A program made the translations under genes and the position numbers. Shown piece by piece: positions 29,468 through 42,825 of a stretch of DNA of 64,000 nt. The notes under the pieces are model-generated. The model ran no database searches, was not told the DNA's origin, and saw nothing but the letters and a program-made list of their open reading frames with translations. The first letter of the stretch is position 1. Each line of letters begins with the position of its first letter. Source of the stretch: Sulfurimonas sp. (lineage in GTDB: Bacteria; Campylobacterota; Campylobacteria; Campylobacterales; Sulfurimonadaceae); the NCBI GenBank assembly GCA_002899765.1, contig PPDH01000042.1, positions 28,284-92,283 on the forward strand, in the 5' to 3' direction.

Positions 29468-30226
29468 CTATTTTAAAATATAGACAATATCGACTTTGAA
29501 TTTTTTGGGAAAATGAAATATATCTTTTGGTATTTCGACTGGAAAGCTATTCTCGATTGCTTCGATGGCTGATTTTTTAAAGATATCATGACCTGAAATA
29601 ATTTTAATATCTCTTACTCCTCCATCTGCAGTTATGGTAAATTCAACCTTTATATTTCCCTCTATAGCTCTTCTTCTTGCGGATCTTGGGTAGGATTTGT
29701 TACTGTTTATACGTTTTATCAGCTCTGCGATAAACAACTCTCTTTTTGCTGTCATCATGTCATCATTAAGCTTTGTATCTGCATTTGAGATATTTTCTTG
29801 TTTTTTTGTTTGCTTCGGCTGGGAGAGAACTTTTTTCTCAACTATGTCTTGCGTATCTTCTTTTATGGGTTCAGGTTCAGGTTCGGATACCGGCTCAGGC
29901 TCAGGCTCAGGCTCAGGCTCAGGCTCAGGCTCAATCGGTTTTGGTTCAGGTTTTTTTTCAATCGGTTTTGGCTTTGGTTTAGGTTTAGGCTTAGGTTTAG
30001 GCTTAGGTTCAATTGGTTTTGGCTTTGGTTCAATCGGTTTTGGTTCTTGCACTACTTTAGGTTCGCTTTTTGGCGTGACTGTGGATAAGCAAACTTTTTT
30101 TATATCGATAACTTTTATATTTTTATCACTATATGTATCTACAGCGGTAATAAAGTAAATAATTAGTATCCCAGCTACTATATAAGCAATAGTACTAAGT
30201 AAAAATGAAGAGAAATATCTATGCAT
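29468..30226 (-). CDS. tonB: Energy transducer TonB
   Basis: 252 aa with an N-terminal TM anchor, a long (KP)n/(EP)n proline-rich spacer and a C-terminal TonB domain (YPRSARRRAIEGNIKVEFTITADGGVRDIKI). Confidence 0.85.
   Translation of the reverse strand: MHRYFSSFLLSTIAYIVAGILIIYFITAVDTYSDKNIKVIDIKKVCLSTVTPKSEPKVVQEPKPIEPKPKPIEPKPKPKPKPKPKPKPIEKKPEPKPIEPEPEPEPEPEPEPVSEPEPEPIKEDTQDIVEKKVLSQPKQTKKQENISNADTKLNDDMMTAKRELFIAELIKRINSNKSYPRSARRRAIEGNIKVEFTITADGGVRDIKIISGHDIFKKSAIEAIENSFPVEIPKDIFHFPKKFKVDIVYILK
29868..30050. repeat. Coding hexanucleotide and ~24-nt tandem repeats inside tonB
   Basis: Seven perfect GGCTCA units lie at 29892-29933, preceded by GGTTCA GGTTCA GGTTCG. These are followed by reiterated TTCAATCGGTTTTGGCTTTGGT-type units, which encode (EP)n and KPKPIEPKP on the minus strand. 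Confidence 0.85.
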
Positions 30227-40641: not shown

Positions 40642-42825
40642 TTAAAATTTAACCGACAACCCTGCCGTATATACTCTGCCTGGATTTACCGTAATTGATA
40701 AATCTTCTGCATTAAAAAGACCGTCTTCATTTCTGTCACCGCTTGATCTTGCCGTGTTGTAGTAAAACTTATCAAAAACATTGTCTACTCTTGCAAAAAG
40801 GTTATACTGATAATCACCTATTTTATTTGTGTAGCTTGCAAGCAGGTTTAATGTTGCATGACCCGGTATCTTGATTTGATTTAAATCATCTGCGTAATAC
40901 TCGGATTTTGCATTTACCTCTGATGTTAGTTTTAGCTCATTTATCGGCATATAGTCTAAAATAAGATTTAACTGATGCTTCGGAGTTCTAGGGATTTGGT
41001 TGTTAGTTGCATCAAAAAATGTAACAATTGAACTACGATAACTACCGTCTAAATCAATACCGAAATTATCATACTTTGTATAATATGCATCAAGATAGGT
41101 ATATGCAGCATTAAATGACAACTTATCAATAACATTGCCTATTACAGAGAGCTCTAAACCTCTATGTTTCGCACCTCCGACATTATCCCACATGTCTGTA
41201 GTATCCGTATCTCCATAGTTACCTGATGTTTTCATGATAAAGTCTTCTCTGTCAATTTGAAAAATTGCAGCTTCGTACGTGATTCCTTTTGCTTTTGCTC
41301 TAAGACCTATCTCATAGTTAAATGATTTTTCAGGATCTAAGTCGGGATTGTTTTGGGTGCTTCCCCATGCACTAGTGTCTCCGGCGTAAAGTTGATTAAC
41401 CGTAGGTGCTCTAAAACCCGTTGAGTAATTTGCATAAATATTTAAATCATCGTTTATCTTATAGTTCATTCCCAGTCTGTATGAGTAAACTTTGAAGTCA
41501 TTTTTAATATTGTTGTTTTGGTAATCTTTATAGTCCAGTTTAATTAAATCATAGCGAATGTTTGCAGTTGCACTTAAATCTTTTGTAATTTCCTGCTTGT
41601 ACTCACCATAAATAGCGTAAACGTTTTCATCTGTAGTATCATCGCTCTTTGCATCGCCTGCTAAGTAGTAATCAGGAGTTACGGAGTAAGAAGGGTAGTA
41701 TCTTACCAAAGCTTGATTGACTCTGTAGGTAGATTTGTTTTCATACTCGTTAAATCTTAAATCAAGACCCAAGAGAGTAGCAAACGTGTCAAACGAACTT
41801 CTATATTCACTCTTTACTCCTCTTTGTATTTGTGCATACTCGTTGTCATAAGTATAATCACTATCATCAAGAGAAGGATCCGAAGCTCCGCTGCCGTCTT
41901 TTGTTTGCGGTGCTGACATGTAAGACGTGTCGTCTGTATAGATATATCCGTTTACAAGCAGATTTGAGTTGCTGCTAAAATCTTTAGAGTATGTAAGAAA
42001 GAGTTTTAATAGTTCAACATCATAATCTCTTGTGTAATCTCTATTGTCTTGATTTCCATCATAAACAGATTCTGGATTTGTTCTTGCCGCTGTTTCTCCG
42101 CCTACGGTTCCGTGTGTATCTTTTGCTCTGTCTGAATACTCAAAGCCAAAAGATATGTCAGATGTATCATCAAGATAGTATTGAATTTTACCGTTTAAAT
42201 ATTTTGTTTTATAGTCTGAATCTTCCCAGTAACCATCAGATTTTCTTTGACTTGCCTGAATATGAAAACTTAAGTCATCATTTGCGTAACCGCTTCTTGC
42301 CAGGACTTTTTGATAGCCGTCGCTGCCGAACTCAACCGCTCCGTAATTGTGGTTGTATTTTGCACCTTTTTTTGTTGTAATAATAATCGCACCTGAGAGT
42401 GCATCATCTCCAAATAGGTATGAAGCCCCGCCTTTGATTACTTTTATACTCTCTACATTATCAAGGTCAATATTTACCTTTCCTGTTCTCTCAAATACAG
42501 GAACACCGTCGATAACAACGGCAACGCCTGGTTTTTCACCCATATACATCTGGTTCTCTACACCTCTGAGGTGAATTTTTAGCGAATCACCTGAAGTATA
42601 CTCTGTCGTTACCCCGGGAATTGATTGTAAAAGCTGCTGCACACTTTCTGCATGTGCTTCATCAACTTTTTCGCCGCTAATCGTAGTCGTAGTTGAAACC
42701 TCAGTTTTTTTTGTGTCAAACTTACTGTCGATAGTAGAGGACTCAACCTGGATTGTTCCTAAATCCGACGCAGAGGCACCAATTGCCAGAGCGCAGATTG
42801 CTGAAAGATATACCCTTTTTTTCAT
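40642..42825 (-). CDS. TonB-dependent outer-membrane receptor
   Basis: 727 aa with a signal peptide, a plug domain (IKVIKGGASYLFGDDALSGAIIITTKKG), a 22-strand barrel and a terminal aromatic residue (...TAGLSVKF). Confidence 0.9.
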   Translation of the reverse strand: MKKRVYLSAICALAIGASASDLGTIQVESSTIDSKFDTKKTEVSTTTTISGEKVDEAHAESVQQLLQSIPGVTTEYTSGDSLKIHLRGVENQMYMGEKPGVAVVIDGVPVFERTGKVNIDLDNVESIKVIKGGASYLFGDDALSGAIIITTKKGAKYNHNYGAVEFGSDGYQKVLARSGYANDDLSFHIQASQRKSDGYWEDSDYKTKYLNGKIQYYLDDTSDISFGFEYSDRAKDTHGTVGGETAARTNPESVYDGNQDNRDYTRDYDVELLKLFLTYSKDFSSNSNLLVNGYIYTDDTSYMSAPQTKDGSGASDPSLDDSDYTYDNEYAQIQRGVKSEYRSSFDTFATLLGLDLRFNEYENKSTYRVNQALVRYYPSYSVTPDYYLAGDAKSDDTTDENVYAIYGEYKQEITKDLSATANIRYDLIKLDYKDYQNNNIKNDFKVYSYRLGMNYKINDDLNIYANYSTGFRAPTVNQLYAGDTSAWGSTQNNPDLDPEKSFNYEIGLRAKAKGITYEAAIFQIDREDFIMKTSGNYGDTDTTDMWDNVGGAKHRGLELSVIGNVIDKLSFNAAYTYLDAYYTKYDNFGIDLDGSYRSSIVTFFDATNNQIPRTPKHQLNLILDYMPINELKLTSEVNAKSEYYADDLNQIKIPGHATLNLLASYTNKIGDYQYNLFARVDNVFDKFYYNTARSSGDRNEDGLFNAEDLSITVNPGRVYTAGLSVKF

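Follow-up and report, generated by a model that had tools for sequence, protein, structure and literature searches.

A 64,000-nt stretch of a Sulfurimonas sp. genome (contig PPDH01000042.1; hereafter the window) carries, on the minus strand between positions 29468 and 42825, a gene cluster in which a TonB-dependent receptor (TBDR) and its energising proteins ExbB, ExbD and TonB are encoded together with membrane polyferredoxins and an ATP-driven reductase of the double-cubane cluster protein (DCCP) type. From sequence comparisons we tentatively propose that this cluster is a Campylobacterota operon for the TonB-dependent acquisition of a scarce, thiophilic and redox-active metal, most likely copper. 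In this proposal the operon would belong to a regulon controlled by an OmpR-family regulator through the operator TTAACA-N5-TTAACA, and not by Fur, and the ATP-driven low-potential reductase module would assist the reductive capture of copper. The cluster consists of ten open reading frames (ORFs), listed here from the receptor gene to tonB:

40642..42825, minus strand: TonB-dependent receptor, 727 aa, with Plug (PF07715) and TonB_dep_Rec (PF00593) domains
40184..40627, minus strand: exbB, MotA_ExbB domain, TIGR02805 at 157 bits, with an in-frame TGA at 40573..40571
39814..40194, minus strand: exbD, PF02472 and TIGR02804
39136..39795, minus strand: DsbD_2 / UreH-like six-helix membrane protein, PF13386
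36367..39123, minus strand: 918-aa fusion with Fer4_5, NosL and DUF4198 domains
35400..36380, minus strand: NapH-like polyferredoxin, 326 aa, Fer4_5 and Fer4_10, a dicluster ferredoxin
34142..35407, minus strand: HGD-D / DCCP homologue of the HgdB/BcrB family, HGD-D at 319 bits
33336..34142, minus strand: BcrAD_BadFG ATPase of the archerase type (DCCP reductase, HgdC/BcrAD family), PF01869 at 186 bits
30219..33305, minus strand: RND permease, distantly HAE1-like, ACR_tran
29468..30226, minus strand: tonB, with a Pro/Lys/Glu-rich spacer, TonB_C and TIGR01352

An earlier note on this DNA had described eleven same-strand genes with gaps of no more than 31 nt. The common strand and the tight spacing stand; the count does not, since there are ten ORFs and the note's own list names ten. 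Computed from starts supported by orthologues (36380 for the NapH-like gene and 35407 for the DCCP gene) and with exbB begun at ATG 40627, the gaps from the receptor gene to tonB are 14, -11, 18, 12, -14, -8, -1, 30 and -8 nt. The limit of 31 nt holds only when exbB is read from ATG 40627, in a frame that contains the in-frame TGA. This codon sits where eight relatives have a Gly codon (GGA or GGG); the longest uninterrupted exbB ORF begins at 40567, and a restart at that ATG would truncate the first transmembrane helix. The TGA may be a real nonsense mutation, in which case the operon may depend on another ExbB, or it may be an error of sequencing or assembly. No strong terminators were found inside the cluster. 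The domain assignments made earlier were all borne out by Pfam and NCBIfam hidden Markov models, including that of DUF4198, whose score of 32.7 bits is below the cutoff and whose fold was confirmed.

The DCCP homologue scored 342.1 bits against NF040772, 8 bits short of the cutoff of 350, with the next family at 73 bits. Its best matches in the PDB were two entries of the DCCP of Carboxydothermus hydrogenoformans, 7YYL (4.4e-63) and 6ENO (1.2e-62). Seven cysteines (C67, C86, C105, C133, C300, C334 and C367) align with cysteines of 7YYL and are 98-100% conserved in 53 orthologues; overall, DCCP orthologues are 70-95% identical across Campylobacterota. The spacings between these cysteines are 18/18/27/166/33/32, so that the first three spacers are 0-2 residues off the published DCCP motif, CX19CX18-19CX29CX166-170CX32-34CX32C, whose cysteines ligate or flank the [8Fe-9S] cluster. 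The gene of the ATPase overlaps the DCCP stop codon by 1 nt. The ATPase scored 228.7 bits against TIGR00241 (cutoff 125.4), its cluster cysteines C130 and C170 are invariant, and its ASKHA motifs GIDIGST, NIGGQDSK and FDGGPALN are conserved. The two proteins are predicted to form a pair of double-cubane [8Fe-9S] protein and archerase reductase. They resemble DCCP and DCCP-R of C. hydrogenoformans in the HGD-D fold (E about 1e-63), in the seven cluster cysteines and in the adjacent ATPase with both of its cluster cysteines; in contrast to that pair, they are encoded within a TonB-receptor operon, straight after a polyferredoxin and a metal-binding membrane protein. According to reviews, DCCP has no known physiological function. 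It reduces small unsaturated molecules in vitro, and an association with organometallic transport loci has been proposed.

The largest of the putative redox components, the 918-aa fusion, was divided into the following parts:

38404..39123, minus strand: residues 1-240, NapH/CcoG-type polyferredoxin module with four helices, Fer4_5
37744..38403, minus strand: residues 241-460 (taken more widely, 37699-38406, residues 240-475), five-helix membrane domain; no Pfam model, weak sub-threshold Yip1 matches
37333..37665, minus strand: residues 487-597, periplasmic NosL-type domain (CxxCGM ... CxxxC), PF05573 at 60.9 bits against a threshold of 24
36499..37176, minus strand: residues 650-875, periplasmic DUF4198/Zcp-like domain, PF10670 at 32.7 bits against 34, with partial coverage of the profile

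The N-terminal module has two CxxCP/CxxxCP motifs and two 4-Cys ferredoxin motifs, in which every cysteine is invariant; it gave weak matches to NapH (28 bits) and NosR. In the five-helix domain H273, R277, H358 and R391 are invariant, and E361 was so among 10 sequences and not among 48. A search of 1.84 billion representatives found this domain in only 52 clusters at 50% identity. The longer matches mostly have it at about residues 240-470, and a handful of the clusters look like stand-alone proteins of ~230-260 aa. The membrane part of the fusion had no fold match in the PDB. We regard the five-helix domain as a candidate for a new and rare domain family.

The fold of the NosL domain matched 7OG7 and 7ZNQ_L in Foldseek at 24-25% identity and with a probability of 1.0. 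The domain is optional, as there are orthologues of ~790 aa without it. On either side of it, at residues ~460-470 and ~636-642, lie linkers rich in Met and His, which read GHGNHG and GGGHNHGG in the window and GMHGMHGM, GHMHGG, GMMMGMG or MGMMG in orthologues. The DUF4198 domain is linked to Zcp by fold search alone (Foldseek E = 1.5e-8, TM 0.66-0.69), a phmmer search of the PDB having given no match. Its GHxHG motif and invariant H736 would correspond in placement to H29, H31 and H142 of Zcp, but the histidines are often replaced by methionine. The domain resembles Zcp of Neisseria gonorrhoeae (PDB 9MHL) in its fold and in an HxH and a distal invariant His that recall the three-His site; unlike Zcp, it is membrane-anchored, is fused to or adjoins redox proteins, has its histidines partly exchanged for methionine and is not Zur-regulated. 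At the C-terminus of the fusion, a membrane anchor helix is followed by the conserved cytoplasmic tail RRxKPFKEV. The AlphaFold model (mean pLDDT 75) has the four helices, the five helices, the NosL and DUF4198 domains in the periplasm, the anchor and the cytoplasmic tail, and the Fe-S motifs are predicted to face the cytoplasm.

Two known copper systems are close to parts of this protein. CcoG, which belongs to the assembly pathway of cbb3 oxidase, is a copper-specific reductase made of a membrane polyferredoxin and an Ig-like domain in the periplasm; no electron donor is known for it. The fusion has in common with CcoG (FixG/RdxA) that it is a membrane polyferredoxin with Fer4_5, two [4Fe-4S] sites and a C-terminal periplasmic beta-sandwich, and that it has a link to copper. 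It differs in that FixG_C was not detected, in its additional five-helix, NosL and DUF4198 domains, and in its association with a TonB receptor instead of ccoNOQP/ccoHIS; no cco genes accompany it. Judged by these features the fusion is not a member of CcoG and would at most work in a CcoG-like way. The second system, OprC/NosA with NosL (the NosDFY-L pathway for N2O reductase), combines, like the cluster, TonB-dependent import with a NosL-type Cu(I) domain, and OprC-like receptors occur in the regulon described below. The NosL of the window is, however, an internal domain of a ten-helix membrane protein and not a lipoprotein, and no nosDFY genes were found in the window region or in the annotated loci.

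The 326-aa polyferredoxin contains three CxxCP-type motifs and two [4Fe-4S] motifs, whose cysteines are conserved in 56 orthologues. The additional residues C48, C58, H65, C168 and C171 are also invariant and lie in loops which, by the positive-inside rule, would be periplasmic; such a placement hints that the outer face of the protein carries a site for redox chemistry or metal. It is far below the NapH cutoffs (TIGR02163, 79 against 213 bits; NF007013, 78 against 234 bits) and gave a weak match to Fer4_18 (E = 8e-4). With NapH and NosH it has in common the four-helix topology, the CxxxCP motifs and the C-terminal di-cluster ferredoxin domain; besides the scores, it differs from them in having no NapG/NosG partner and in the extra invariant cysteines of its predicted periplasmic loops. 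There were no nap or nos genes near the cluster. In the DsbD_2 protein, four cysteines are invariant among 61 orthologues: C21 and C25 (ACMFSCMP, in helix 1), C108 and C137. This protein may be a channel for a thiophilic metal or, alternatively, a thiol-redox relay. In gut Firmicutes the CsoR copper regulon includes COG2836/DsbD_2 proteins, frequently as fusions with HMA domains (PMC4938975).

We examined whether these genes are inherited together. Relatives of the fusion were sought in one genome per GTDB species, which gave 217 positive genomes; all ten window proteins were then compared with 83 loci by tblastn. The best 80 loci from the 217 genomes were all from Campylobacterota, as were the top 120 DCCP matches, and sampling outward from DCCP gave the same partners as sampling from the fusion. 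The fusion is 83% identical to its counterpart in Sulfurimonas denitrificans. This species (strain DSM 1251, CP000153, positions 281,635-304,391) has an equivalent gene set, as have Arcobacter sp. FWKO B and Nitrosophilus alvini, and the genomic surroundings differ from one to the other. Differing flanks around the same core argue for a mobile functional unit. Wherever a DUF4198-bearing fusion was followed by enough downstream sequence, the NapH-like protein, DCCP and the ATPase were present (46/46 loci). The DsbD_2 protein accompanied such a fusion in 58 of 60 loci and the receptor did so in 51 of 53. In contrast, only one of nine loci with a fusion lacking DUF4198 (residues 1-606 or only 1-465) had the DCCP module; these shorter fusions lie between the receptor and ExbBD/TonB, or straight before an orphan RND gene (loci L052, L062, L065 and L069). 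The earlier note had proposed such neighbourhood mining. The linkage is strongly conserved, and the cluster, which the note had taken to be one system, is a single conserved unit whose gene order recurs in dozens of species across Campylobacterota.

A variant from Sulfuricurvum indicates how the fusion is built. In it, the DUF4198 domain, the anchor and the tail form a separate 317-aa protein (E = 3e-16), and in the Sulfuricurvum-like contigs L205 (4617-5786) and L206 (4291-14689) a PepSY_TM protein stands in place of the N-terminal module of the fusion, together with the NapH-like protein, DCCP, the ATPase and DsbD_2. The PepSY_TM protein and the free-standing 317-aa protein show that the 918-aa fusion is modular. 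Combined with the inheritance linked to DUF4198 and with the short fusions, this variant points to two separable units. One is a receptor-associated inner-membrane redox module, made up of a polyferredoxin with the rare five-helix domain or, in its stead, of a PepSY_TM protein. The other, which is strictly co-inherited, comprises the DUF4198-anchor part, DsbD_2, the NapH-like protein, DCCP and the ATPase. This invariant unit adjoins the receptor, and RND, ExbBD and TonB are variable accessories. Receptor identities fall into classes (roughly 78-93%, 55-70% and 38-47%) as against steadily conserved inner components (60-95%), which suggests that receptors have been swapped.

The control region of the window was compared with those of the other loci. 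Three elements lie ahead of the receptor gene:

42925..42941, minus strand: Fur-box-like palindrome ATAAT-N7-ATTAT; two such sites in the window against 0.38 expected
42885..42901, minus strand: direct-repeat operator TTAACAcAAAAgTAACA, with an 11-bp period, overlapping the -35 position
42873..42878, minus strand: -10-like hexamer TATTAT, 17 nt past the first TTAACA; best promoter-like match in the 15-kb region, 10/12

The palindrome is the Fur-box-like element to which the earlier note had drawn attention. It exists, but control by Fur and iron is not supported. The closest relative, L004, lacks the palindrome, and of nine close relatives L038 alone has it, with just its downstream half preserved. 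When the E. coli Fur box was scanned, in its E. coli consensus, against 300 nt upstream of 60 receptor genes (59 orthologues and that of the window), the best matches ahead of the 59 orthologous receptors were 10-13/19, which is background level; within the window, no match to the 19-mer was found with up to 3 mismatches. The palindrome is probably not functional, and Fur control was rejected on both counts. The conserved element is the direct repeat. The aligned upstream regions have in common AAAATTAACAcAAAATTAACACTT and then TATTATACT, a direct repeat with an 11-bp period placed over the -35 position. In its exact form TTAACA-N5-TTAACA was present in 56 of 83 loci, and 103 sites were counted in 1.40 Mb, against 1.25 in shuffled sequences. 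These sites precede receptor genes (62) and exbB (15), and also the fusion gene, small NosL-like genes, DsbD_2 genes and tonB.

In L009, L067, L072, L079 and L081 the same operator precedes a gene for an OmpR-family regulator. The cluster-linked regulators (Response_reg and Trans_reg_C) are one orthologous group with 40-93% identity, and where a kinase adjoins such a regulator it is a minimal intramembrane-type kinase. In a scan of metagenomes, an 18-mer operator was found upstream of receptors of the window type (10) and of OprC-like receptors (8); further sites preceded double-NosL genes followed by FtsX/ABC genes (7), the regulator (3), the fusion (2) and tonB (2). We infer that 42885..42901 is a putative binding site of an OmpR-family response regulator that is autoregulated. 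The TTAACA half-site resembles those of B. subtilis PhoP and E. coli ArcA, a likeness by which the motif tells the class of the regulator and not its signal. Two OmpR-type regulators encoded in the window itself (22110-22787 and 60967-61644) were considered as the cognate regulator and rejected, being only 21-31% identical to the cluster-linked group. Control by a cobalamin, NiCo or Moco riboswitch was not borne out by Rfam: the window gave no match that reached the gathering thresholds, and its leader, which is only ~60 nt long, gave none with an E-value of up to 1.

Some other loci differ in what lies beside the operator. In L204 (5798-5975) and L205 (2204-2379 and 5875-6062) the operator is ~160-180 nt ahead of the start codon, and the two leaders of L205 are nearly identical across the 43 nt compared; there may be a leader RNA element in some lineages. 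In L009 (896-6992, minus strand), and also in L012, L061, L189 and L203, a divergent operon lies behind a TTAACA-N5-TTAACA operator. It encodes an OmpR-type regulator, a minimal intramembrane-type histidine kinase (~240-280 aa), NosL, DsbD_2, a double-NosL protein, a 107-aa protein, an FtsX-type permease and an ABC ATPase. By analogy with NosDFY-L, this operon might deliver copper in the periplasm through mechanotransmission of the MacB/Lol kind. A second pair of a NosL-like protein (167 aa, membrane-anchored, DCGM) and a DsbD_2 protein (237 aa, GHCIGMCGG) is encoded in the window at 16093-17320 on the plus strand. In a comparison with L009, its NosL-like protein is 39% identical to the small NosL that is under operator control there, and its DsbD_2 protein is 61% identical to the partner of that NosL; pairs of this type also lie 8-9 kb from the cluster in L007, L008, L018 and L060. 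No operator is claimed upstream of the pair in the window, where there is only one GTAACA half-site, with the wrong spacing.

The receptor of the operon scored 216 bits against TIGR01783, the siderophore receptors (cutoff 223.5), and its nearest solved structures are those of YncD/PqqU (E = 7e-33). It has no match to TIGR01778 (TonB-copper) and, as the mature protein is without any Cys, no CxxxM...HxM site. H85, M95, E97 and H617 are invariant; the conserved DLGxIxVESSTID that follows the signal peptide was read by eye as the TonB box, and the PF00593 domain is the predicted 22-strand barrel. In 13 loci a second receptor of the OprC type adjoins the cluster, with TIGR01778 as its best family (in L067, L045 and L026 at ~200 bits, against a cutoff of 472). 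The eight receptors at the metagenome sites also have TIGR01778 as their best family. Across 18 such OprC-like receptors, CxxxM is present in 18/18 (GAC(P/V)NRMDPP) and HxM in 16/18 (VDHPM). CxxxM-HxM is the copper site of OprC (PMC7558416).

For the RND permease, the best PDB matches were AdeB and TriC at ~175 bits. Its DD proton-relay motif is intact, M125, H135 and M140 are invariant, and an orthologue is present in 24 of 60 long-fusion loci. A copper RND of the CusA type was rejected, since the best matches were HAE1 pumps, with CusA/CzcA lower. The permease had been noted before as lacking an adaptor or channel gene, and indeed no gene for an adaptor (membrane-fusion) protein or outer channel was found beside it in the operon. 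L003 has a complete but non-orthologous RND pump (23% identity) upstream. Measured against established families, the proteins of the cluster reach or nearly reach the standard for DCCP, archerase, TBDR and, as a domain, NosL; the cluster falls outside NapH, CcoG, OprC (as far as its own receptor is concerned), the Fur regulon and tripartite RND systems.

How these components might act together can be outlined as follows. The receptor, energised by ExbB-ExbD-TonB, would import copper, probably in complexed form, while ionic copper would be handled by the OprC-like paralogue. In the periplasm the fusion would capture the metal on its Met/His linkers, its NosL domain and its Zcp-like DUF4198 domain, and its CcoG/NapH-like Fe-S module would carry out the redox step, in which Cu(II) is converted to Cu(I) or the metal is freed reductively from its ligand. 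This chemistry is suggested by analogy with CcoG and with the PepSY_TM siderophore reductases. The DCCP/ATPase pair, docked to the NapH-like protein, would supply electrons of very low, ATP-boosted potential or, as the direction is itself conjectural, receive them. The four-Cys DsbD_2 protein could conduct the soft metal ion along a cysteine-lined path, and the orphan RND, at a guess, would remove or recycle the ligand or surplus metal.

Copper is favoured by the NosL fold, the Zcp/DUF4198 fold, the Met/His linkers, the co-regulated OprC-type receptors, the cysteines of DsbD_2 and the precedent of CcoG. We also count as a copper signal the operator-controlled NosL-DsbD_2-NosL-FtsX/ABC operons of the regulon. 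Cu(I) sites typically show a free exchange of His and Met, which would be unsuitable for Zn or Ni, so that the interchange seen in the linkers suggests a site of the Cu(I) type. The idea, already put forward in the earlier note, that an imported metal is handled reductively fits these data in general, with copper as the best candidate.

Several observations weigh against copper acquisition by such a route. The identity of the metal rests on motifs and neighbours. The operon's own receptor is like those for siderophores and PQQ and lacks the OprC copper site; Zcp/DUF4198 proteins bind Zn, Co, Cu or Ni; and ~18 of 60 long fusions have no NosL domain. The best-known PepSY_TM proteins are those of iron systems. 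The reduction of free Cu(II) needs no ATP-driven reductant, and the requirement for DCCP is left without an explanation except where a very stable complex, or the ligand itself, would be the substrate. Since Fe-S domains of the NapH type face the cytoplasm, the route of electrons to the periplasm is only putative. Lastly, exbB of the window has a premature stop.

The need for an ATP-driven reductant could be understood if very stable chelates, the destruction of a ligand or copper sulfides were involved, which is speculation; a rough estimate from standard potentials puts Cu2S/Cu(0) at -0.5 to -0.7 V at pH 7. A more specific proposal would then be that the DCCP pair is no stand-alone catabolic enzyme but an ATP-powered electron booster wired to the membrane polyferredoxins, with which sulfur-oxidising Campylobacterota would extract copper from extremely stable sulfide, thiol or chelate complexes at the envelope or membrane with electrons well below -500 mV, and that TTAACA-N5-TTAACA defines a phylum-wide copper-starvation two-component regulon. 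In this full form the proposal is doubtful. If true, it would give DCCP its first physiological role and would be the first ATP-energised reductive pathway of metal uptake.

Among the other explanations that we considered, one based on iron survives best, though we judge it unlikely. The receptor would take up ferric siderophores, the polyferredoxins and the DCCP pair would act as reductants of very low-potential Fe(III) chelates, and the siderophore would be recycled by the RND permease. The affinity of the receptor to the siderophore receptors of TIGR01783, the swapping of receptor classes among loci, as with xenosiderophore receptors, and the Fur-like palindrome in the window all agree with this. 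So does the replacement of the N-module in L205 and L206 by a PepSY_TM protein, the family of the FoxB-type ferric-siderophore reductases. With ferric catecholates, whose potentials lie near -750 mV, there would be good reason for a reductant driven by ATP. The pathways of reductive siderophore release (FoxB/PepSY_TM, and FpvGHJK with PvdRT-OpmQ recycling in Pseudomonas) follow the same logic of receptor, reductase, periplasmic capture and ligand efflux. The cluster departs from them in having an Fe-S and not a haem reductase, an added DCCP module, no ABC importer, and regulation and metal signatures that are not those of iron. There is no conserved Fur box, and the control element that is conserved, a direct repeat of the response-regulator type, is one that OprC-type copper receptors and NosL genes have as well; Met-rich linkers and a four-Cys channel would be poor ligands for iron, and the operon contains neither an Fe(II) permease nor an ABC importer.

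It is rather improbable that the system serves a copper enzyme instead, providing low-potential electrons and Cu(I) for the assembly or reactivation of N2O reductase (CuZ) or of cbb3 oxidase, in the role that NosR has in other denitrifiers. The activation of CuZ needs strong reductants, and such a service would suit the NosL domain, the NosL-FtsX/ABC operons of the regulon, which are reminiscent of NosDFY-L, the polyferredoxins of the NapH/NosH/NosR type and the many hosts that are denitrifying Sulfurimonas, Sulfurovum and Nitrosophilus. The operon is, however, built around a TonB receptor, with ExbBD/TonB nearby in many loci, and no nos or cco genes were present among the six loci with Pfam-annotated neighbourhoods.

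In a reading based on nickel, cobalt or zinc, a divalent ion destined, for instance, for a hydrogenase would be caught and taken in by the DUF4198 domain together with the UreH-like DsbD_2 protein, and the role of the Fe-S proteins would be structural or regulatory. We find this improbable. The fold of the DUF4198 domain does match that of the zinc-capture protein Zcp, in its Zn and Co forms, and that of an Ideonella protein with bound Ni. There are His-rich GHNHG motifs, and DsbD_2 proteins are annotated as UreH-like, a link drawn in the earlier note too. But as Ni, Co and Zn are redox-inert in vivo, two polyferredoxins and an ATP-driven reductase, all strictly co-inherited, would be left without a job. 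The replacement of His by Met in the linkers fits neither Zn nor Ni, the regulon includes OprC-type copper receptors as well as NosL genes, and the Rfam search of the window and leader found no NiCo or cobalamin riboswitch. The hydrogenase/nickel idea, which goes back to the earlier note, found no specific support.

We see just as little likelihood that an organic molecule or cofactor (quinone-like, an isonitrile, a hydroxamate or an organometallic compound) is imported for ATP-driven reduction, with DCCP as the terminal enzyme and the metal-binding domains incidental. That the nearest solved receptor is the PQQ importer PqqU/YncD would be in keeping with such a substrate, as would the in vitro activity of DCCP on small unsaturated molecules and its proposed link to organometallic transport; yet no importer in the inner membrane is obvious, the coupling of DCCP to a metal-binding domain in the periplasm and to a membrane protein lined with Cys is strict, and the regulon is rich in copper proteins. 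A chance juxtaposition of unrelated modules with no common function has next to no probability and is effectively refuted for the core: RND and ExbBD/TonB do vary in presence and place, and the flanking genes vary between genomes, but the DCCP module goes with the DUF4198-bearing fusion in every locus that could be scored, translational overlaps of 1-14 nt join genes, the sub-operons have one operator in common, and the same core within differing flanks speaks for a mobile unit. An activation of sulfur (S8) was considered as well, as Sulfurovum TonB receptors are induced on S8; no link to the genes of the cluster was found.

The earlier note knew of no described system of this kind, and our full-text literature searches likewise found no published description of this gene combination; published mentions of TonB in Sulfurovum and in an aquifer epsilonproteobacterium concern other matters. 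The parts belong to or resemble known families, and what appears to be new is their combination, namely TonB-dependent metal acquisition with an archerase/double-cubane module and a rare membrane domain; as a whole the cluster belongs to no single system described so far. The cluster provides a first strong genomic context for DCCP, a class of nitrogenase-like ATP-driven reductases, and its strictly conserved partners provide a concrete hypothesis on DCCP function that is open to genetic tests in the cultivable S. denitrificans DSM 1251. It bears on the supply of copper to N2O reductase and cbb3 oxidase of denitrifying sulfur oxidisers in sulfidic water, where copper is almost insoluble, and hence on N2O emissions, and also on the electron donor of cupric reductases of the CcoG type. 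A phylum-wide regulon with its operator and a rare, unannotated membrane domain are defined at the same time.

The cluster is flanked by unrelated housekeeping genes: NrdD/NrdG, a thiamine-phosphate synthase-like gene, flavoproteins and a methyltransferase. Just downstream of it, on the minus strand, are the anaerobic ribonucleotide reductase NrdD with a radical-SAM activase-like ORF (24524-27454) and a protein of the nitrite/sulfite-reductase family (22774-24477). These neighbours suggest a low-oxygen lifestyle, which would be compatible with an oxygen-sensitive DCCP and ATPase. Within tonB, a 153-aa antisense ORF (29697-30158, plus strand) has Gly/Ser/Phe repeats that mirror the Pro/Lys/Glu-rich spacer of TonB; it is almost certainly not a gene.

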